This document shows positions 24,866 to 64,000 of a stretch of DNA of 64,000 bases, piece by piece. Position 1 is the stretch's first letter, and every line of letters starts with the position of its first letter. The notes under the pieces are model-generated. The model had not been told where the DNA came from and did not search any database. It was given only the letters and a program-made list of their open reading frames with translations. The stretch comes from Candidatus Beckwithbacteria bacterium (GTDB taxonomy: Bacteria > Patescibacteriota > Microgenomatia > UBA1400 > UBA1449): NCBI GenBank assembly GCA_012797845.1, contig JAAZOH010000040.1:57072-121071 (forward strand), given 5' to 3'. The position numbers were made by a program, and so were the translations under genes.

Positions 24866-25855
24866 TTATAATATCCTACCACTTCCAGTTAAGATAATAA
24901 TTAAAGCTACCATTACAAATAAAGATAAGTGCACAAAACTTTTTCCGGTTCTTCGGATGGTGCCCCGATGCCAAATCAAAATTCCATCAATTACCAAAAC
25001 AACGATAATAATGAGTGTCAGAGCCAGATTAACGCTTTTAGTCAGATCAAATGAGGAAAACGCAGGAATATGATCTAAACTAACTGATTCAAGTAATGTT
25101 TCCGGGAACAAAGTTTTGATTTGCGTATTTGCTGGTTCTTGTTGTTTGACTTCTTTGATATCTTCTACCACTTCATCAACTGGTTCCGCCACAGCAACAA
25201 CCGGTTCTTCAGTAATGGGTTTAACTTGAGGTTCAATTTGTACCCCCTGTACAGATTCAGCAGCTGCCTGTTCAGGGATAGCAGCAACTGCTGTTGATGG
25301 TGCTCCAAAGTGCTGAACCACTAAAGTCGTTTCCTGGCCATTTAAGAGTCCATTAACTACTGCTACTCCAATTTGGGTATAACGACCAGACATAATATTA
25401 TCTTTATGGGTTTGAGATTCCATCCAAGCTGCCACCACAGCTCCGGAGTCATTAAAATCTCGGGCTAAGTTTTCTCCAGCATACAGATAGGTATAGCCAG
25501 CTTGCTTAAAAAAAGACCAAGGACTAGTTCCATCAGGGGCTGTGTGGGCCCAATAATTATTGGCAAACATATGAGCTGCTTTATACCTGGCCGAAGTAGC
25601 TAATGTTTCATTAAATTCTAGGGCTGGCAAACCAGCTTCAGCTCGTTTCTGATTGGTCATTGAAACAATATCACCCACAGAAATATTTGAGGCATATCCT
25701 AAAACCCCAGGTTTAACTTGAGAAATCCCAGAAATTAAAAGCTGGAAAAAAAGAATCAGTAAAACTAGTTTAGAAAGCGATTTATGGTGAAGAATTTTAG
25801 CACGATGATTATTGCCGTGATGAGGAAAAAACAAATTATGTAGATGCCGCTTCAT
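24866..25855 (-). CDS. CAP/SCP/PR1-like (YkwD-type) domain protein with signal peptide and C-terminal membrane anchor.
   Basis: NYWAHTAPDG...YLYAGENLARDFN...AAWMESQTHKDNIMSGRYTQIGVAV carries the CAP domain signatures. A hydrophobic C-terminus is present. Confidence 0.7.
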   Translation of the reverse strand: MKRHLHNLFFPHHGNNHRAKILHHKSLSKLVLLILFFQLLISGISQVKPGVLGYASNISVGDIVSMTNQKRAEAGLPALEFNETLATSARYKAAHMFANNYWAHTAPDGTSPWSFFKQAGYTYLYAGENLARDFNDSGAVVAAWMESQTHKDNIMSGRYTQIGVAVVNGLLNGQETTLVVQHFGAPSTAVAAIPEQAAAESVQGVQIEPQVKPITEEPVVAVAEPVDEVVEDIKEVKQQEPANTQIKTLFPETLLESVSLDHIPAFSSFDLTKSVNLALTLIIIVVLVIDGILIWHRGTIRRTGKSFVHLSLFVMVALIIILTGSGRIL

Positions 25856-25929
25856 ATCAAACCATTATGAAACTATCAGATTATTTCGTCAATTAGAAAA
25901 GTGTGAAAATAAGAAAGTAAAGAAAATAT

Positions 25930-27385
25930 ATGTCGGACCGTCGTATTGTATTGCTTCTCTTTTTTTGTGTTGTTGCTTAAAAAAGAGTCGACGGCCCGAC
26001 TAAGGTAAACAATCAGCCCGATGTTTTGGGCTGATTGAGAATTATCTTTCTAGAACACACTCAGGGAGTATGCTCTAGTTTTCACAACTGGGGTTTGGGT
26101 CCCAGTTGAGAATTGTTTTACTCGGGGTGTGAAAGGGCCGAACTTCCCCGAGTTTTTTCAACAGCTGGGTTGAGTGGACAACCCAACTGAAAATTGTTGG
26201 AGCCCGCCATTGGGCTCCGGAACGCACGACTCTGTGCGTTCAAATAACCTCCCCTTTTTCGGGCATTGTAGTTGGCAACTTCGCCAACCAAAACCCTAAG
26301 AGGTAGGTCATTTTCTTTTTTTTATTTTTTATTGCTGTTGTTTTTCAAAAACCATCATAGCCCCTACGGCTAGGTTTTTGTTAACAACTCTGCCCCCATC
26401 GGACAGCCCAAAAATTCTCAAGAAGAATTCCGGGATTTTACTATCCAAAAAAATCAATAGCAAAATCCCAGAATCCTTACTGTTTACCATATTGTAAAGA
26501 GCCAATTACCACTTTCTAAACTAAAGCTAGTTTTCAGTTGAAAATGATAAATTTGGAAAAGTGAATTTTACTACTTAAAAAGCAAAAAATCAAGACATTA
26601 AAAGAAGAAGGTGAAACTAAAAGAAGTAAATAATATGCCCCAAAACGCGAAACAAGACACCTTCATCTACCTTTCTACTTAACGTAGAAACAACAGGATA
26701 GAATTGGGTGTCTTGTAAAAGACAATGAAACGAAGTCCACGAGGGCTGCAGGGTGTTGCAAAATCTGGTCAATAAGACCTGCAGCCCTCAGCGGACACTT
26801 AGGAAAAGGAGAAGGGTTTCGTCGCGATATTCTGCGACGGGGGTCCAAAGTCAGCCAAGAGACAGCTGACCCGAAAACCCTTCCCTCAAAGGACGGGGTG
26901 GTTCTTCCGGGCGACAGTACAGCAATGATTTCGGGGACCCCTCCCGAAATCCAGAAAATGAACGAAAATACCTTGAGGCGAGCCAGCCTCTCCAGTAACA
27001 AGCTCGCCTCGCCGAGATCTACTTTCCCTCTCCCCAGGGAAATGCAAGCAGGTCTCGGTATTAAAGACCTTTTTCGACCCAACCCAATCGCACTGGGTTG
27101 AGTTGTCCAGATCACCCCCATGTGGGCACATCTCTAAGGGGGGTTCCCTGGACACAACAGGTGCCCAATCATTGAAGGCTAAGTTTCTAGCCATCGATTG
27201 GGCGTTTTTACCGAACTTTTCCTTTCCGGGAGAATTGTCTCCCAGACTTTCAATAAGCTCAGGCAAGCCTATTCTTGCCTGAGTACGACTAAAATAATTC
27301 CACCCGGCAACCTGTGGGACGTCTTGGGTTGCCGGGCTGCGGTGCGCCTGTTGAGGGTGGCGAGGAATGTGAAAGTTTACCATCT
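25930..27385. ncRNA. GC-rich, hairpin-dense non-coding island. Candidate large structured RNA of unassigned family and unknown strand.
   Basis: Base composition rises sharply relative to the flanks. There is no credible ORF, only mutually overlapping garbage ORFs on both strands. Dozens of perfect or near-perfect stems are visible. Examples: gtcggaccgtcg/cgacggcccgac at 25932/25988; gggctgcagg/cctgcagccc at 26743/26778; caagacacc/ggtgtcttg at 26653/26707; a three-way junction at 26811-26883; cccggcaacc/ggttgccggg at 27303/27326. Confidence 0.35.
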
Positions 27386-27636
27386 AATAATTACATGGCA
27401 CACTATCACACTCCTCTTATTTTTCATTCATATTCATATTTCTCCTTTTCCTTATTTCATTGTTAAAGGGCATTAGTCATAAAAAATAAAAAAACCGCTC
27501 TTGGTTTATTATTTTTAACTGACTAATATTATGAGCTATATTATTCAATAAATTATTATTTTGTCAAGAAACATCTTGTATATTAGAGATCTTTATACTT
27601 GTCAAAGGGAATTAAATCTGCAAAGATAATTATGAG

Positions 27637-28269
27637 ATGAATGAATCAGTTAATCCCCAAACTCAAGCCAATACCAATAAAGAGGATAATCTTGTCTACA
27701 ACCCCTATACTCACAAAATGTTTACTAAAAATGCCGCTGCCATGGCTGGGTTTGAGGTTTCTTTGGATAAAGCCGCAGATTTGAAATTACCACTTTTTTG
27801 GGATAATGGCGTAATTTTTGGCTCTAAAGAAATGGTTGAGCAAAGAAAAGTCGCCACTTTACCAGGAACGGTAAATAAAGGAGCCTGTATTCACTATGAA
27901 GATATAGCCGGAAAAACAACTTATGCTGCTATTACTGAACCCTGGCTTTTTGCTAAATATAAGGGTATTTATTTGCGACCGGTTTCAGCTTTAGAAGTAC
28001 CCATTCTTTTTGGTAAACATTCTGTTTTTAAAACCTACGAAATTCGTGATAGCAATTTTATACCTTTAGATAAAGCTATTATTAAAGATAAAATTGATAT
28101 TCCAAAACAGTTTAAAAATCCGGTTTTACAGAAAATTTTTGCTGGTTATACCAAAATAAAAACTAAAGGTAAAAATTCAAAATTCTTTACTGCTGACACT
28201 ATCTTGTGGGTTTATTTTGTGCTGATTATGTCGCTTTTGACAGCTTTAATTATTCGGTTTTACAAATAA
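27637..28269 (+). CDS. Hypothetical protein with C-terminal TM anchor.
   Basis: 210 aa with a hydrophobic tail (ILWVYFVLIMSLLTALIIRFYK). No family was recognised. Confidence 0.3.
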   Translation: MNESVNPQTQANTNKEDNLVYNPYTHKMFTKNAAAMAGFEVSLDKAADLKLPLFWDNGVIFGSKEMVEQRKVATLPGTVNKGACIHYEDIAGKTTYAAITEPWLFAKYKGIYLRPVSALEVPILFGKHSVFKTYEIRDSNFIPLDKAIIKDKIDIPKQFKNPVLQKIFAGYTKIKTKGKNSKFFTADTILWVYFVLIMSLLTALIIRFYK

Positions 28270-28285
28270 TTGCGTATTAATTCCT

Positions 28286-28954
28286 CTACCTGTGATTTTT
28301 CTTAAACCAGTTACTTATAATATTGTTTGTCCTAAACCCATCCCACCAATGCTTGAAAAAGTTTTTATAGTGGTCAAAGTGATGTCCAAATGTTGGCTTA
28401 GGAGTTGGCGTTGGTGTGTGATGGTGATCAGGGTTACCACAACTAAAATTGATGTCAAAATCAAACTTGATACTGCTTTGCTGATACTCATTACCCACTG
28501 ATGAATCAATAGACACGATCCAGTCATAATCTCTTGACTGGCCGTTGCTAAGTGTGCCTAAGTTAATTCTCTCAGTTGCCAGCAGATCGGCTAAAGTTTT
28601 ATCGCTACCAGCCCACCCACTAACTAGAAAATTTCCAAAATAATCAGTGCCATTAGCTCTGATAACGGTAAATAAAACTTCGTCCAAACTTTTAGGCTCA
28701 GTTGCATCTTTTGGCCGGACTAGAAGCGTCAGCTGGCAATCTTTACCAGTAGTGTTTTTGACTGAAATAGTTTTTTGATACGTATCACCTGGTTTAACAT
28801 CTAGTTCCTGAAACAAGGTTTTTTTATCAATAGTCGTCATACTACAACGGCTCTTATCGCATTTGACAGTGCAATCGCTATGAGCAGACACAGGCTGTAT
28901 AAAAATTCCTAAACAAAATAGTGAAAACAGAATTGCTATAAAATATTTAGTCAT
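28286..28954 (-). CDS. Secreted TasA/camelysin (Peptidase_M73)-like protein, His-rich C-terminus.
   Basis: Signal peptide, then LDVKPGDTYQKTISVKNTTGKDCQLTLLVRP. This resembles the TasA core L-PGD-x-K-x-V-N-G motif. Confidence 0.4.
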   Translation of the reverse strand: MTKYFIAILFSLFCLGIFIQPVSAHSDCTVKCDKSRCSMTTIDKKTLFQELDVKPGDTYQKTISVKNTTGKDCQLTLLVRPKDATEPKSLDEVLFTVIRANGTDYFGNFLVSGWAGSDKTLADLLATERINLGTLSNGQSRDYDWIVSIDSSVGNEYQQSSIKFDFDINFSCGNPDHHHTPTPTPKPTFGHHFDHYKNFFKHWWDGFRTNNIISNWFKKNHR

Positions 28955-32237: not shown

Positions 32238-32312
32238 ATTTTCTTAGCTCGTTTTTAAAAGCAAAAATTGGCTTCTCAAAAACCAACTAAAATATTTCTC
32301 TAGCTAAGGAGA

Positions 32313-32330
32313 GAGGGGCAAATACCCCTC
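32313..32330 (-). terminator. GC-rich hairpin downstream of the 288-aa tasA-like gene. Possible terminator or attenuator.
   Basis: gagggg-caaata-cccctc perfect 6-bp GC stem. A T-rich stretch follows on the minus strand but is not immediately adjacent. Confidence 0.3.
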
Positions 32331-32359
32331 CCTCCCCGCTAACGAAAAAACAAATTAAT

Positions 32360-45231: not shown

Positions 45232-48200
45232 TTAGGCTTTTATAATCTCAATAAGTTTTTGACTGCTTTTATCCCAACTAAACTGCCCAGCCCATTTCTG
45301 AGCTTCTTGCTCCATTCTGGTCCTCAGTTTTTTCTTAGTCAAAAGCTGGGTAATTTTCTGAGCAAAAGCACCGCTATCACCATGAGGAACTAAGTAACCG
45401 GTATGGGGATTAGAAACGGAATCCCGCAAGCCAGGGACATTGGCCGCCACTACTGGGGTACCACAAGCATTGGCTTCAATGACCGAGATACCCCACCCCT
45501 CCATTGAAGACGGATAAGCAAAAACCCAAGACTCTGTTAGGAGTTTGTATTTAGCTTCTTCACTAACTTTACCTACAAAAGAAACAGTGTCTTGCAAATG
45601 AAGTTTTTTAACCAGTTTTTTGAGCTGTTTTTTATGCTCTCCAAAACCGGCAATAGTTAGCTTTGCTTTAGGCTGTTTTTGTTTAATCTCTACCATCGCT
45701 TCAATAAGTGTATCTATTGATTTATATGCTTTTAATCGGCCCAAATACAGGATTGATGGGTAGGAAGTTTTTTTGCTATTTTTGGGACTGCAAACTGTCA
45801 CCCCTGGATTGATAATGGCAATTTGATGTTTTTTGCCCAGACCAATTTTGATCATGTCTTTTTTAGAAGACTCGGACACCGTGATCATTTCCACATTACG
45901 ATACACCCAAGGCATCAGTTGGCTTTCTAAAAAGGTAGCTAGCATGGCTGAAAAGGGGTTGAGGTTTTTACGAAAAACTTCTTGATGCACATGATGAACT
46001 AAGCCAACAATCGGTTCTTTGGCATACAGTGGCGTAAAAAAGGGAATGCCATTTTCACCGTCAATAATCACATCATATTTACCTTTAAACCGAAATAGGT
46101 AGTAAAAGAATGCCCAAATGTAGACAGTATAAAAACCACCCCGCCTGACAATATGGACACCGTCAATGGTTTCAAACTTAGGATTGTGGTGATCATTACC
46201 ACAAAAAACTGTCACTGTGTGGCCTTTTTCCACCAACTGTTTGGCAATTTCATGGACATAAACCTCAGCTCCCCCAGCCCAAATATGCTTGGTATCACGC
46301 CAGTTAAAAATCAAAATCTTATAGCTATCAAGCTTCTTTTTTTCTGGAGCAGGAACAGATAAAAACAGCCCTAAAAAATCAGTGATATTTCCCCAAATAG
46401 TCGGCAAGGCATCAGCAAAAATATGCAGAAAAGCCATGGCTGACAAATTGGCCAATCCCACAATAGCCATTACCCAAACAATTTGACTCACACTACTATG
46501 AAACAAAACAATGCCAAAAATTTGCACCAAGGCAAACATAAAATTGACAGTTGGGAAAAGGTGCTTATTCCTAGCCTGATGGAAGGTGGCAATAATATTG
46601 GCCACCGTGAAGTAAAAGATAGCAATGCCGTAAATTGGCAAAAGTCCAACTACCGGAACTATTTTACTACCCAAGAGTAATGGTGTGGTGTATTTACCCA
46701 ACAGACCAACAAATAGGTAGGCTAATAAACTTACTCCACTGGAAAGATAAAAAAGCTTATAAAAAATTGGTTTACTGGCTTTACTCTCCCCCTCAGCTTT
46801 ACTCACAATCGGTAAAACAAACTGGCTAAACAGGCTGCCAATCATGTAAATCATTTTGCCCACCAAAGCTACTAGGGCATAGTGACCAGCGTCACTAGGT
46901 GAAAGATAATGTTTGGCTAAAATTACGTCAAAGCTCAAAAAAGCTACAGATGAAAATTTCAATAAAACTGAACTTGAGAAAAATTTAACTGGAAATTTGT
47001 ATAAAGCCGGGCTTTGTTCAATGTGCTTCTCCTTAGTTTTTTTGGCTGCATACCACCCAACTAGAAACGAAACAGCCATAGATAAGGGAATCGCCATATA
47101 AACCCAATGCTCAAAACCAAGTTGAACTAATAACACGGTGAAGACTAATTTACTGGTAGCTTCAGCTGCAACCATAAAAGCTAAAGTTTTAAATTGTAAA
47201 ATTCCAGACAAATAACCACTATCAACTGCTGCTACCGTGCCAATAAACCAAATTGGGGTAAATAGTATAAACGGGATGACACTTGAGGAATTAAAGTAAT
47301 GACTGAGAAAAGGCGTAGTTAATAACCACAGAGCCGTCAAAGCTAAACCGATATAAACTACCTTGCTACGAATGTGAGCCCAGTAGCTTTTGATAGCCGT
47401 TTGATACTTACCAAAATAGTAGGCACTTTTATTGGTAATAGTCCGGGATAAACCGCTTAGAGGAATAGCAGATAAAAACAGGAAGTTGCCCATCAGGCTC
47501 ACTAAACCAAAACTTTCCAAAGAAATAGTTCTAGATAGATAGGCGTTATAGAGAAAATTCAGCACATTACCCAACATGGAGGCAGCCACTAAAATCCCAC
47601 CCGATACCGCATCAGTGCTTATTAAAAATCCAAATCTGCGGCCAATAAAACTTTGCCTATCAACTGATTCAACTTGCTGTTCCGCTTGAGCCTCGGCCTG
47701 TTCCTGTTGCTGTCCTAAATGCAAACCGTGAATGGTTTTTTCCCAGTAGTACGGTTTGACTATAAACTGCCATAGGGCTTTTACTGCCGCTAGGCTTACC
47801 ATCAACCAGTACACAGGAATCAAAAAGACAAATTTGACCAGTTGCCACTGTTCTCGCTTGGCACAGCCAATCATGTAATAGTAGATAAATAAGAAATTAC
47901 CAAAAATCAGTGAAGTCATAGCCATGTAAAAAATTGAGGCCGGATAGAGGGATTCGATAGTCGGACCAACGATGGCGTAGAGCGAAAAGTAAGCAATTGT
48001 TGCTAACCATAAAATCGGATTAATGAGCATGAAAGCAATTTTGCCCCCCACTACCAATTGAAAAATAAAAGCATGCCAACTCTGATTTTTGACAAACTGA
48101 ACCGGGTGACGCATGTGAACAAAGTAAGTTTGGATATAGCCTTTAATCCATCGGGATCGTTGCCTAAACCAATTGCCTACTTTACTATTAGCCTCCTCAA

Positions 48201-49842
48201 GAGTTGTCGAATCAATCATGGCAGTTTTAAAACCTTCTTTAAAAAGCCTTACGCCCAAGTCACAATCTTCAGTCACATTGAAAGCATCCCAACCCTGCAG
48301 CTTTTGCAATTCTTGAGTACGGAAATGGTTGCTGGTACCGCCAAGGGGAATAGTGGTATCTATTGACTGCAAACCGGACAAGGTAATATCAAACCAAAGC
48401 GAATATTCGGCTGTAAACAGCCTGGTGAGAATATTTTGCTCAGGATTGTAGTAGTTAAGTTTGGCCTGCAAACACTTGACGTCATCCGAAGCTTTATTAA
48501 AAGCAAGATAGGCTTTTTTAAGCTGCAATGGATCAGGTTGGTCTTCTGCATCATAGATAACCAAAAATTCACCAATAGCCTGCTTAAGACCATAATTACA
48601 AGCTTTGGGTTTTGTTTTAGGTTGGGAATGAGGGACAACAATAATTCTGACATAATCAGGCAAATTTAGTTTCTCGGCAGCTTCAATCGTAACCCTGTCA
48701 TCCTCTTCCAAAAGCAACTGGACATCAAGTTTATCCTTGGGCCAATCAAGCTTAGCAATTGATTTCAAAAAGTGTGGCAAAACATGAGCTTCTTTGTATA
48801 GCGGACAAAGAATGGTGTAGATGGGTAAAAGCTCTGGTTTTAAAGCTTGAATTTCTGCTTGGCTAACTGAAATTTCTGGCGGGAAATGGAGACTTTTTAA
48901 AATTAAATAGAGATTAAATAAAACATCAATAAAATAGATTGAGCTTAAAATCGCAACCACTACTTTTAATGTCTGAATAGGATTTAGGCATATGCCCACA
49001 GCCACTGAAGCCAAAATTAGAAATATAGTCAATTTTTGCCAATGCTTCAAGCTTGTAATAGCTGATTGATGTAATTCTAACTGTGTATGAGTAGTAAACC
49101 GTCTCCGTTTATAGCCAATTACACCCTCTTTATTTTGATCAATATACAAAGGCTTGACGTGATGAAGACGCTGCCAAATCGACAAGCTTAGTAGTTCAAA
49201 ACTGGCTGAAAATAACTTTGATTTCCGGTTACCGTGTTGGCGTCCATGATAAGGTACTTCCACAGTTCCAATACTAAAACCTGCCTCAACGCTCCTACGG
49301 ACAAATTCTAGATCAAAGCTCCAATTCCCTGGCTTAATTTCAATATGATCAATAATTTTCTTTTTAAAAACTTTAATACCGGATTGAATATCAACCTGTA
49401 GATTAAATAGTAATGTACCAAAAATAAATTTATACAAAGAAGCTAGTAGCTTTTTACCAACCCGCTGTTTGTTTTGATATTTCCTACTACCTATAACTAA
49501 ATCATATTGCTTTATGCTTTCAGCTAGTTCTGGAATTATTTCGGGAGGATACGCTAAATCAGCGTCAATAAAACCAATAGTCTGGTATTTGGCAGCCTTA
49601 ATTCCCACCCAAACAGCTTTACCTTTCCCAGAAGATTCTTTCCTAGTTATTATTTTAAAAGGATATTCCTTATTAAGATTTTTCAAAACTTTTAAACTTT
49701 TATCGGTTGAATGATCATTGACAACAATAATTTCGAAATGCCTAAAATTTTTTTGAAGAGTTTCCAACAACCTGGGGATTAAAACAGGAAGACTTTCCTG
49801 CTCATTTTTTACTGGAATGATAATACTAATCGAAGCTAGCAT
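45232..49842 (-). CDS. Giant 1536-aa multidomain glycan synthase fusion. Domain order: GT2 (DPM1-like), processive GT2 synthase (QxxRW), polytopic Wzx/MOP-like membrane domain, then GT4.
   Basis: N-terminal SIIIPVKNEQE...VVNDHSTD (first GT2). Central IYDAEDQPD...TEDCDLG...QRSRWIKG (cellulose-synthase-like D,D,D,QxxRW). Residues ~aa 600-1100 are hydrophobic and helix-rich. The C-terminus LTESWVFAYPSSMEGWGISVIEANACGTPVVA carries the GT4 EX7E motif. Confidence 0.7.
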   Translation of the reverse strand: MLASISIIIPVKNEQESLPVLIPRLLETLQKNFRHFEIIVVNDHSTDKSLKVLKNLNKEYPFKIITRKESSGKGKAVWVGIKAAKYQTIGFIDADLAYPPEIIPELAESIKQYDLVIGSRKYQNKQRVGKKLLASLYKFIFGTLLFNLQVDIQSGIKVFKKKIIDHIEIKPGNWSFDLEFVRRSVEAGFSIGTVEVPYHGRQHGNRKSKLFSASFELLSLSIWQRLHHVKPLYIDQNKEGVIGYKRRRFTTHTQLELHQSAITSLKHWQKLTIFLILASVAVGICLNPIQTLKVVVAILSSIYFIDVLFNLYLILKSLHFPPEISVSQAEIQALKPELLPIYTILCPLYKEAHVLPHFLKSIAKLDWPKDKLDVQLLLEEDDRVTIEAAEKLNLPDYVRIIVVPHSQPKTKPKACNYGLKQAIGEFLVIYDAEDQPDPLQLKKAYLAFNKASDDVKCLQAKLNYYNPEQNILTRLFTAEYSLWFDITLSGLQSIDTTIPLGGTSNHFRTQELQKLQGWDAFNVTEDCDLGVRLFKEGFKTAMIDSTTLEEANSKVGNWFRQRSRWIKGYIQTYFVHMRHPVQFVKNQSWHAFIFQLVVGGKIAFMLINPILWLATIAYFSLYAIVGPTIESLYPASIFYMAMTSLIFGNFLFIYYYMIGCAKREQWQLVKFVFLIPVYWLMVSLAAVKALWQFIVKPYYWEKTIHGLHLGQQQEQAEAQAEQQVESVDRQSFIGRRFGFLISTDAVSGGILVAASMLGNVLNFLYNAYLSRTISLESFGLVSLMGNFLFLSAIPLSGLSRTITNKSAYYFGKYQTAIKSYWAHIRSKVVYIGLALTALWLLTTPFLSHYFNSSSVIPFILFTPIWFIGTVAAVDSGYLSGILQFKTLAFMVAAEATSKLVFTVLLVQLGFEHWVYMAIPLSMAVSFLVGWYAAKKTKEKHIEQSPALYKFPVKFFSSSVLLKFSSVAFLSFDVILAKHYLSPSDAGHYALVALVGKMIYMIGSLFSQFVLPIVSKAEGESKASKPIFYKLFYLSSGVSLLAYLFVGLLGKYTTPLLLGSKIVPVVGLLPIYGIAIFYFTVANIIATFHQARNKHLFPTVNFMFALVQIFGIVLFHSSVSQIVWVMAIVGLANLSAMAFLHIFADALPTIWGNITDFLGLFLSVPAPEKKKLDSYKILIFNWRDTKHIWAGGAEVYVHEIAKQLVEKGHTVTVFCGNDHHNPKFETIDGVHIVRRGGFYTVYIWAFFYYLFRFKGKYDVIIDGENGIPFFTPLYAKEPIVGLVHHVHQEVFRKNLNPFSAMLATFLESQLMPWVYRNVEMITVSESSKKDMIKIGLGKKHQIAIINPGVTVCSPKNSKKTSYPSILYLGRLKAYKSIDTLIEAMVEIKQKQPKAKLTIAGFGEHKKQLKKLVKKLHLQDTVSFVGKVSEEAKYKLLTESWVFAYPSSMEGWGISVIEANACGTPVVAANVPGLRDSVSNPHTGYLVPHGDSGAFAQKITQLLTKKKLRTRMEQEAQKWAGQFSWDKSSQKLIEIIKA

Positions 49843-61297: not shown

Positions 61298-61540
61298 TTT
61301 TTTAAAACGCAGCTATCAAGAAGCTGTTTTGTGAATTCCTTAATAAAGTGTCTTCTGCATTCCTCTGAGGGAAGCTTAGAAGACATAAATAAACAAAACA
61401 GATTCCTGAAGACCGTTTTATAAAGTGGCAGTTTCTTTTTGCCTATTTCCTTTGCTGTCAAAGAAAATAGGCTATTAAAATATTTATTCTAAAAAATTAG
61501 TTATATTTATAGTAATCGACTCCAGCATTTCAGTCTAGAT

Positions 61541-63262: not shown

Positions 63263-63475
63263 AGCGCTACCAAGAATGTGTTTTTATGATATCATTCAAA
63301 ATAGATTAGGCTCATTGCAAAATAAAAAATGTTACAAAAACGAAGAATTTTTGTTCAATTTTCTAGGAAATTAAACCGATAGTACTTAATGTACTTGAGG
63401 TGTTAAGTGACAAAGAAAATTGACAAAAAGACAAGTTAGTGTGCGTTTGCTTATTTTGCAATAAGTCTAGTTATT

Positions 63476-64000
63476 ATGGCTACTGTTATCATTTCATTTC
63501 TAAAAGATATAGGCAAGACACTCCTAAAACTCATTCGCAGCTTATTGCTGAATGTGATTGTTTTAGGTTTAATCTTTTTCTTGCTATTCATACTTATTAC
63601 AGCTGTAATACCTCAGAGTCAAACCGGCTTAGGCTATTTTAAAGAACAAGTGGTTCGTAATGAAGGCGGTGAGGCTAAAATTGCAGTCATTCCTCTTTCT
63701 GGTTTAATTTTGTCAGATAATGCTACTGATTTACTATCTGCTGGTTCTGAAATTATTTCTCCAACCAAAGTCCGTAATGCCCTTTTGCAAGCTCAAGCCG
63801 ATCCAATGACTAAAGCAGTGATTTTTGATCTCAATTCGCCAGGCGGTTCGCCGGTTGCTTCTGATCGGATTTTTGAAGAAGTTGTCAATTTTAAGCGTCA
63901 AACTAAAATTCCGGTTGTTTTTCTGCTCGGTGATTTGGCAGCTTCTGGTGGATACTATATTGCTTCATCAGCTGACTTTATTGTAGCTAATCCAGCCACA
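63476..64000 (+). CDS. sppA: Signal peptide peptidase SppA (S49 family). Only the N-terminal part is in the window; the gene continues beyond the window end.
   Basis: I translated the ORF manually from the ATG at 63476. It runs open to the window end and is absent from the ORF track because no stop falls inside the window. It has an N-terminal TM helix, then ...IAVIPLSGLI...AVIFDLNSPGGSPVASD...LGDLAASGGYYIASSADFIVANPA, which are S49 signatures. Confidence 0.7.
   Translation, partial: MATVIISFLKDIGKTLLKLIRSLLLNVIVLGLIFFLLFILITAVIPQSQTGLGYFKEQVVRNEGGEAKIAVIPLSGLILSDNATDLLSAGSEIISPTKVRNALLQAQADPMTKAVIFDLNSPGGSPVASDRIFEEVVNFKRQTKIPVVFLLGDLAASGGYYIASSADFIVANPAT

Follow-up and report, generated by a model that had tools for sequence, protein, structure and literature searches.

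Among the cell-envelope and surface-protein genes (LTD, CAP, sortase and M73-like) of a Candidatus Beckwithbacteria bacterium, which belongs to the candidate phyla radiation (CPR, Patescibacteria), lies an island of 1.78 kb (25856–27636) without a credible gene. What, if anything, does this DNA encode? The island belongs to a stretch of 64,000 nucleotides (contig JAAZOH010000040.1 of assembly GCA_012797845.1, positions 57,072–121,071), which we refer to as the window; coordinates count from its first nucleotide. A first-pass annotation had drawn attention to a group of helices within 26640–26890 and had proposed that they form a ribozyme or riboswitch core. We put at about an even chance a different reading, namely that the island encodes an orphan large structured non-coding RNA (ncRNA) of ~1.55 kb on the minus strand, and that these helices are branches of its 5' domain.

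Composition, folding and strand of the island

The GC content of the island is 46–54%, with a peak of 53.5% in the bin 26801–27200, which is the highest in the window; all 400-nt bins elsewhere stay at or below 45%. GC over most of the window is 30–42% and the genes lie nearly all on the minus strand. When the 64 kb were scanned by folding in sliding 200-nt segments, 12 of the 13 most structured segments fell within 25901–27500. Composition, folding energy, strand asymmetry and transcription signals are the criteria that a single sequence offers for recognising a structured RNA, and the island scores positively on every one of them. The same stretch is present in an ENA assembly (ERZ928041, contig k127_38915, 124 kb, run ERR1876141), and the island sequence is identical in these two independent assemblies, and hence is real DNA.

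The two strands of the island do not fold equally well. Overall, the sequence folds to −644 kcal/mol on the minus strand and to −579 kcal/mol on the plus strand, a gap of 65 kcal/mol. The minus-strand fold is the better one in every sub-region except the 251 nt singled out by the first-pass annotation, in which the strands are equal (−101.0 kcal/mol for plus and −101.2 kcal/mol for minus). Twelve single mismatches in well-defined helices are A·C on the plus strand and G·U on the minus strand, as compared with one or two of the reverse kind. Likewise, an internal loop in 27104–27154 is composed of tandem G·A on the minus strand and of pyrimidine-pyrimidine oppositions on the plus strand. An asymmetry of G·U versus A·C is not expected of a purely double-stranded DNA element, which is therefore disfavoured. 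Originally, the helices had been written in the plus orientation, whereas these asymmetries speak for the minus strand.

Consensus signals for transcription are found at both ends of the structured region. On the minus strand, TTGACA-16 nt-AATAAT at 27567–27540 agrees with the sigma-70 consensus at 11 or more of 12 positions, as no other site on either strand of the 64 kb does, and would place a transcription start near 27533. This promoter-like site is arranged back-to-back with the upstream region of a divergent gene for a 210-amino acid protein. At the other end, a terminator-like hairpin (AGUCGG-GCCG-UCGACU, 26001–25986) followed by CUUUUUU (the whole spanning 26001–25978) marks the putative 3' end, and the two sites frame a unit of ~1.55 kb. 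A second, weak hairpin-plus-U-run feature is present at 26037–26010. The next gene downstream, CAP, has promoter-like sites of its own at 25907–25864.

Predicted architecture of a putative minus-strand RNA

Folding of the minus strand from 27540 to 25960 yielded probabilities of 0.8–1.0 for most helices. In the model that we propose from this fold, transcription would proceed on the minus strand from about 27533 to about 25978, starting at a strong promoter of its own and ending at an intrinsic terminator. An AT-rich hairpin of 6+8+5 bp (27474–27525, probabilities 0.94–0.98) would form the 5' end. This would be followed by a 5' domain of ~840 nt (27473–26635) closed by an interrupted 44-bp zipper, in which a purine-rich strand of 53 nt (27421–27473) would pair colinearly with four separated, pyrimidine-rich downstream segments taken in order. 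The predicted partners are 26635–26641 (7 bp with 27467–27473, probability 0.79), which closes the domain; 26722–26731 (10 bp with 27454–27463, probability 0.94); 26801–26813 (13 perfect bp with 27440–27452, probability 0.97); and 26954–26968 (11+3 bp with 27421–27435, probability 0.92). Shuffling the 53-nt strand alone resulted in the loss of 19 kcal/mol (z = −7.1), with none of 120 shuffles being as good.

Between the zipper segments, the model places four branches. A 9-bp hairpin (26927–26951, probability 0.90) and, beside it, a three-way junction (26811–26883) with a closing stem and two hairpins would lie between the fourth and third partners. An 18-bp hairpin, H2 (26735–26796; 12+6 bp, 25-nt loop), would lie between the third and second, and a 23-bp irregular hairpin, H1 (26652–26716; 10+6+7 bp), between the second and first. 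The apical region (26970–27416) contains nine local hairpins, most of whose helices have probabilities of 0.9–1.0. In minus-strand order these are 27362–27416, 27302–27337, 27258–27283, 27208–27256, 27163–27203, 27104–27154 (the one with the tandem G·A loop), 27077–27103, 27012–27058, and 26975–27010.

H1, H2, and the junction are the elements that the first-pass annotation had described as nested long-range helices and a clean three-way junction. The 251-nt stretch that contains them has z-scores of −7.9 (plus) and −6.8 (minus), and each of the three elements alone has a z-score between −3.8 and −7.0 on both strands; in every case none of 200 shuffles was as good. The description of the stretch as a multi-helix structured element is thus borne out. 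In H1, caagacacc (26653–26661) does pair with ggtgtcttg (26707–26715), as part of a helix of 10 bp (26652–26661/26707–26716), and tttctac (26672–26678) pairs with gtagaaa (26684–26690). The loop between the latter is the 5-nt ttaac, a g having been counted twice. A 6-bp middle helix (26666–26671/26697–26702) links the outer and inner helices, and H1 is therefore one long irregular hairpin rather than a long-range nest. The inner hairpin reads UUUCUAC-UUAAC-GUAGAAA (26672–26690) on the plus strand, which is similar to the Cas12a repeat handle. We take this similarity to be a coincidence, and a Cas12a-like repeat was ruled out, because the window contains neither a repeat array nor a cas gene. 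For H2, the 10-bp stem gggctgcagg (26743–26752)/cctgcagccc (26778–26787) turned out to be the core of a perfect 12-bp stem (26741–26752/26778–26789), which is lengthened by six further pairs (26735–26740/26791–26796). H2 alone has z-scores of −5.4 (minus) and −7.0 (plus).

The pairings of the junction also hold up, apart from small errors in arm length. The closing stem is formed by gaagggttt (26811–26819) and aaacccttc (26875–26883), and the two hairpins by cgtcgc/gcgacg (26820–26825/26834–26839) and gtcagc/gctgac (26850–26855/26865–26870), with junction strands of C/G, GGGGGUCCAAA and CCGA. The junction does need one qualification. The probability of the closing stem is 0.93 when the junction is folded in isolation, but only 0.02 in the full-length fold, because 26801–26813 is engaged there in the 13-bp long-range helix, with which the 9-bp closing stem shares three bases. 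A junction with a closing stem of 6 bp alongside the long-range helix is 3.6 kcal/mol above the minimum, which is within prediction error. The predicted three-way junction is plausible, yet it is a non-unique solution.

A riboswitch or ribozyme reading of these elements is unsupported. No match at gathering score was obtained with Rfam 15 anywhere in the window, and the elements are branches off a long-range interrupted helix instead of a self-contained motif upstream of a gene. The three-way junction, two short hairpins, and 9-bp closing stem do resemble those of purine and TPP riboswitches and of the hammerhead. Unlike riboswitches, however, the elements are located outside a 5' untranslated region (UTR), with no start codon within 750 nt of them on either strand, and, unlike in riboswitch and ribozyme cores, the junction competes with a long-range helix in the full-length fold. 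A hammerhead or other small self-cleaving ribozyme was rejected, with no Rfam match and with junction strands that lack CUGAUGA, the core strand of the hammerhead. Two exclusions made at the outset were confirmed. The helices are not intrinsic terminators, as a scan showed no terminator-like hairpin-plus-T-run site within 26640–26890, which is a further difference from riboswitches. They are also not repetitive extragenic palindromic (REP) elements, as no further copy was found in the window or at the corresponding loci of relatives (eight loci in five related lineages, identified by means of their CAP homologs, which have 58–62% identity).

Downstream of the 5' domain is an AT-rich linker (26490–26634, minus strand, ~32% GC), which has weaker hairpins and three promoter-like sites matching 9 of 12 positions, and which may be the boundary between two RNAs. 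The 3' domain (26488–26004, minus strand) would be a string of about eleven stable hairpins, enclosed by the helices 26479–26488/26004–26013 and 26413–26421/26035–26043 (probability ~0.68). One of its members is a 23-bp hairpin (26423–26478), in which three internal positions and one terminal pair are G·U on the minus strand and A·C on the plus strand. The domain also contains three paralogous units (26000–26056, 26075–26127, and 26152–26203), spaced ~75 nt apart and each consisting of AAYAATTYTCA, a hairpin, and TGT. Between units the flanks are conserved and 7 of 10 stem pairs are changed on both sides, which is weak evidence, coming from internal paralogs only. When the window and the relatives' loci were searched with a covariance model of the unit, just the three source copies were recovered. 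The flank motif also occurs once in inverse form, 370 nt upstream (26421–26413); this copy pairs with the one at 26043–26035, and each of the three units is a potential partner for it. The flank copies may constitute a set of alternative pairings, or may reflect simple duplication.

Such an RNA would most likely act in trans as a stable scaffold or binding platform, either for proteins or for itself, and a ligand-sensing or self-cleaving core is unlikely. We favour a scaffold over sensing or catalysis because long regular hairpins dominate the fold, and because there is neither an expression platform nor a match to an aptamer or ribozyme core. A further step, that the whole is a single protein-free structured RNA of ~1.55 kb and the first reported member of a novel class that CPR bacteria or their mobile elements carry, is one we advance tentatively and consider rather doubtful. 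Its plan would be modular, with branch domains on the 44-bp zipper and tandem hairpins as a tail. If true, this RNA would be, to our knowledge, the largest structured bacterial ncRNA known outside the ribosome.

Relatives, replacement of the locus, and neighbouring genes

Searches for relatives of the island were uniformly negative. For 25500–28000, matches in Rfam at E≤10 were limited to eukaryotic microRNA, small nucleolar RNA, and long ncRNA models, along with the weak bacterial RAGATH-30 and CrcZ, all far below their gathering scores. Known classes defined by Rfam, including HEARO, raiA, group I and II introns, 6S, RNase P, tmRNA, and CRISPR repeats, were rejected on the gathering score. 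The island had no blastn match in phage and plasmid records, and blastn and nhmmer searches against the rest of the window and the eight relatives' loci returned AT-run noise only. Two long open reading frames (ORFs) on the minus strand, of 165 amino acids (26886–27383) and 148 amino acids (26675–27121), served as proxies for the island DNA in protein-level searches. Neither had a relative in JGI metagenome contigs, GTDB species genomes, or IMG/VR, nor a family match in NCBIfam, PHROGs, or PADLOC. No relative of the 165-amino acid ORF was found among 5.8 billion protein clusters, and a third ORF, from the 3' domain, had no match in IMG/VR. A literature search yielded nothing specific on structured ncRNAs of CPR bacteria.

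Several specific candidates were considered and rejected. A group II intron is contradicted by the lack of an Intron_gpII or group-II-D1D4 match at E≤10 and of a reverse transcriptase (RT) among the scanned proteins. A type III toxin-antitoxin RNA (ToxI-like) does not agree with units whose stems differ and which are ~75 nt apart, with no toxin-like gene following and no match in PADLOC. A replication origin was dismissed, as the island contains no DnaA boxes and the GC skew is monotonic, without a turn. A 13-nt direct repeat (25880/27555) is at chance level for AT-rich sequence by our estimate, and was not accepted as a target-site duplication.

Comparison with the relatives' loci indicates how the island came to its position. 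The order of genes in relatives is LTD, an fn3 protein (about 400–440 amino acids), sometimes a 142-amino acid gene, CAP, a 91-amino acid gene, a nucleotidyl-transferase and, further on, MgsA; in some relatives, sortase genes occur in place of the LTD and fn3 genes. Here, the fn3 gene is truncated to 222 amino acids (28286–28954, minus strand). Its product aligns with residues 3–178 of the relatives' 435-amino acid fn3 protein (43% identity, E = 3e-36) and ends in a tail of 44 residues, rich in His, Pro, and Thr, that is read from inserted DNA. The 142-amino acid gene, which follows fn3 in one relative, is gone. Because the remainder of fn3 is missing, we conclude that ~2.5 kb (roughly 25860–28420) replaced the 3' half of the fn3 gene and its neighbour, with the truncated gene at the right-hand edge. 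The possibility that the island is a pseudogene was rejected, as tblastn with the relatives' fn3 and 142-amino acid proteins found no remnant in it.

The replacement segment consists of the island and the divergent gene (27637–28269, plus strand) for the 210-amino acid protein, which is tail-anchored with a C-terminal transmembrane helix. The GC content of this gene is 29–39%, as in the host, and thus the GC excess belongs to the structured part and not to a whole foreign block. The protein has no close homolog in a word-indexed search and no Pfam, NCBIfam, or PADLOC family; a match to a PHROG of unknown function is marginal (E = 0.013), and a match in the PDB (E = 0.82) is meaningless. An AlphaFold single-sequence model had a predicted local distance difference test (pLDDT) score of 41. 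An exhaustive phmmer search identified six remote homologs (27–34% identity, 195–233 amino acids), all of which have a hydrophobic stretch at or near the C-terminus, as read from their sequences. Judged from these sequences, the protein and its homologs seem to form a small, uncharacterised family whose members are tail-anchored. A protein-RNA module was considered and dropped, since the three homolog contigs examined are without a structured island; the island RNA and the 210-amino acid protein are thus no obligate pair.

No gene for a recombinase, integrase, transposase, RT, Cas protein, phage, or mobile element was found among 30 window proteins compared with Pfam and the recorded Pfam families of the other called genes. 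A tRNA/tmRNA scan found no tRNA in the 64 kb, PADLOC gave no defence-system match, and ~3 kb of the contig read beyond the window contained nothing relevant. The flanking proteins are assigned at NCBI to Candidatus Beckwithbacteria bacterium with locus tags GYA49_05510 and GYA49_05520. The 165-amino acid ORF is absent from NCBI proteins; locus tags in steps of 5 would leave exactly one NCBI feature, GYA49_05515, inside 25856–27636.

Elsewhere in the window, genes for glycosylation and for surface proteins (LTD, sortase, M73-like, DUF4012) form a long run, which includes a gene (45232–49842, minus strand) for a 1536-amino acid protein, in which two GT2 domains are fused with a GT4/GT1 glycosyltransferase module. 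The most structured 200-nt segment outside the island (z = −8.8 on the minus strand) contains a GC-rich hairpin at 32290–32345 (minus strand; GCGGGGAGGGAGGGG...CCCCTCTCTCC...). This hairpin directly follows the stop codon of an M73-like gene (33226–32360) and looks like an ordinary intrinsic terminator. Intergenic 61301–61500 and 63301–63500 have z-scores of about −5.5 to −6 in the fold scan.

Alternative explanations and comparison with known systems

A number of observations weigh against a large functional RNA. The minus strand is the G-rich strand by GC skew, and a C-to-T bias there could yield part of the G·U excess, although by our estimate a skew of ~10% is too small to produce 12 to 2. 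The evidence for promoter and terminator is limited to consensus matches, and the promoter-like sites in the linker could give rise to two RNAs. Many of the stems are long and perfect (8–13 bp), which lends the fold a beads-on-a-string look, whereas known ornate RNAs have short helices, pseudoknots, and conserved loops. No GNRA tetraloops were noticed among the hairpin loops in an unsystematic inspection by eye, and loop-loop complementarity, as would accompany tertiary pairing, is not enriched in the island, with no sign of pseudoknots or kissing loops. All eight relatives' loci, from five lineages, are without the island and have only 22–58 bp before CAP; the island was acquired recently and could be inert. 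Covariation lends no support, because the island is single copy and no homolog was found in any collection searched. An island with a single representative would be an 'unnamed' or low-ranking candidate in the ranking used for GC-rich intergenic regions (GC-IGRs) (PMC11109978).

The main rival, unlikely in our judgement, holds that the island is an inert relic: structured DNA brought in with the ~2.5-kb replacement, such as what is left of an RNA gene or a non-coding region from a mobile element or phage of another CPR bacterium, without a present role. Its absence from the loci of all five related lineages examined, its position where the fn3 gene was truncated, and the lack of relatives in the collections searched all agree with this, and a donor in which the RNA had a function could have passed on the strand asymmetry. 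However, CPR genomes are compact and 1.8 kb of junk would be unusual next to spacers as short as those of the relatives. In addition, no gene of a mobile element or phage, and none for an integrase or RT, was found in the segment or among the scanned window proteins, the island is framed exactly by the terminator and by the window's best promoter match, and the helices are intact on the minus strand, with no decay into A·C mismatches. A very improbable explanation is that the island acts as DNA, either as inverted repeats for a recombinase (an invertible segment) or as REP-like or miniature inverted-repeat transposable element (MITE)-like palindromes nested in an older AT-rich hairpin. It would account for the perfect 13-bp inverted repeat over 626 bp (26801–26813/27440–27452) and the further colinear repeats, and GC-rich perfect hairpins in AT-rich sequence are what insertions of nested palindromes are expected to leave. 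The island also lies inside a surface-protein gene cluster, a setting in which phase variation is common. The inverted repeats expected of an inverton are thus present, but the promoter is outside them and no recombinase was found among the genes of the window. No hairpin is copied elsewhere in the window or at the relatives' loci, and the G·U versus A·C asymmetry of 12 to 1–2 argues for selection on a single strand.

We consider it quite improbable that the island is a very long 5' leader of the minus-strand operon for CAP, a 92-amino acid protein, and the nucleotidyl-transferase, with the hairpin at 26001–25986 as an attenuator. The island is immediately upstream of this operon and co-oriented with it, the insertion separated the operon from upstream genes that are contiguous with it in relatives, and the terminator-like site is 130 nt before the CAP start codon. 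Yet CAP has the promoter-like sites of its own described above, Rfam provides no riboswitch or leader match, the same operon occurs without the island in relatives, and 1.5 kb is several-fold longer than any bacterial cis-regulatory leader known to us. A structured plus-strand transcript or 5' UTR running towards the 210-amino acid gene at 27637, in which the junction would serve as the core of a sensor, is highly improbable. The 251 nt fold equally well on the plus strand, 40% of the unpaired plus-strand positions are A, and a terminator-like hairpin with a long T-run is present at 26242–26335 (plus). Outside the 251 nt, however, the plus-strand fold is inferior throughout, with an overall deficit of 65 kcal/mol and 12 A·C mismatches in helices. 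No plus-strand promoter match lies upstream; those nearby (27515–27544, 9 of 12) are downstream of the structured part and before the 210-amino acid gene. The T-run terminator would stop the transcript 1.3 kb short of that gene, and homologs of the 210-amino acid protein on the three contigs examined lack such an upstream region. Finally, it is scarcely credible that the 165- and/or 148-amino acid ORFs are real genes and the hairpins incidental. The former was called by gene callers in both ENA and Logan, and an ORF of this length is uncommon in sequence of 52% GC (about 0.1 expected by chance, a rough estimate). Against this, neither ORF has a relative in protein clusters or in genome, metagenome, or viral contigs, or a family match. 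They overlap in different frames, their translations abound in Arg, Pro, Gly, and Ser and appear junk-like, no Shine-Dalgarno sequence precedes the ATG, and GC is ~52% as compared with about 33–40% in most genes of the window.

The nearest parallels to an orphan minus-strand RNA are GOLLD, ROOL, and OLE, which have been shown by cryo-electron microscopy (cryo-EM) to be self-assembling particles (PMC12286853). GOLLD is the largest of the three, with many members >800 nt, and phages and prophages carry both GOLLD and ROOL, often adjacent to tRNA islands (PMC12286853). Like these families, the island is long, GC-rich, multi-junction, and non-coding; it would form a stand-alone transcription unit and apparently came with foreign DNA. 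It differs from GOLLD in being about twice as long, if it is one RNA. In contrast to GOLLD and ROOL, its surroundings are cell-envelope genes with no tRNA in the 64 kb, it has no match in phage records or IMG/VR, and neither its ORFs nor the two right-hand neighbour genes have a phage-family match beyond the marginal PHROG (E = 0.013). It has no covariance-model match, and it is a single-copy island of long perfect hairpins, while GOLLD, ROOL, and OLE are defined by conservation and covariation. Screens of GC-IGRs by the Breaker laboratory select long GC-rich intergenic regions in AT-rich genomes (PMC11109978). The island is exactly such a region, but candidates were promoted in those screens on the basis of a consensus and covariation from several representatives, as compared with one here. 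With its stable, GC-rich intergenic hairpins and its three tandem units, whose flanks are conserved, the island is also reminiscent of REP elements, bacterial interspersed mosaic elements (BIMEs), and MITEs. Unlike these, its hairpins are not dispersed, with no copy beyond the island either in 62 kb of the same genome or at the relatives' loci, and the strand asymmetry points to one strand as the target of selection.

The island illustrates a limit of comparative methods, in that it passes single-sequence tests while covariation is out of reach with one sequenced copy. If it is inert, it is a clear case of a compact CPR genome gaining and keeping foreign non-coding DNA inside a surface-protein gene cluster. 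If it is transcribed and stable, it would be a very large addition, from the CPR, to the short list of ornate bacterial ncRNAs, and a natural target for cryo-EM.

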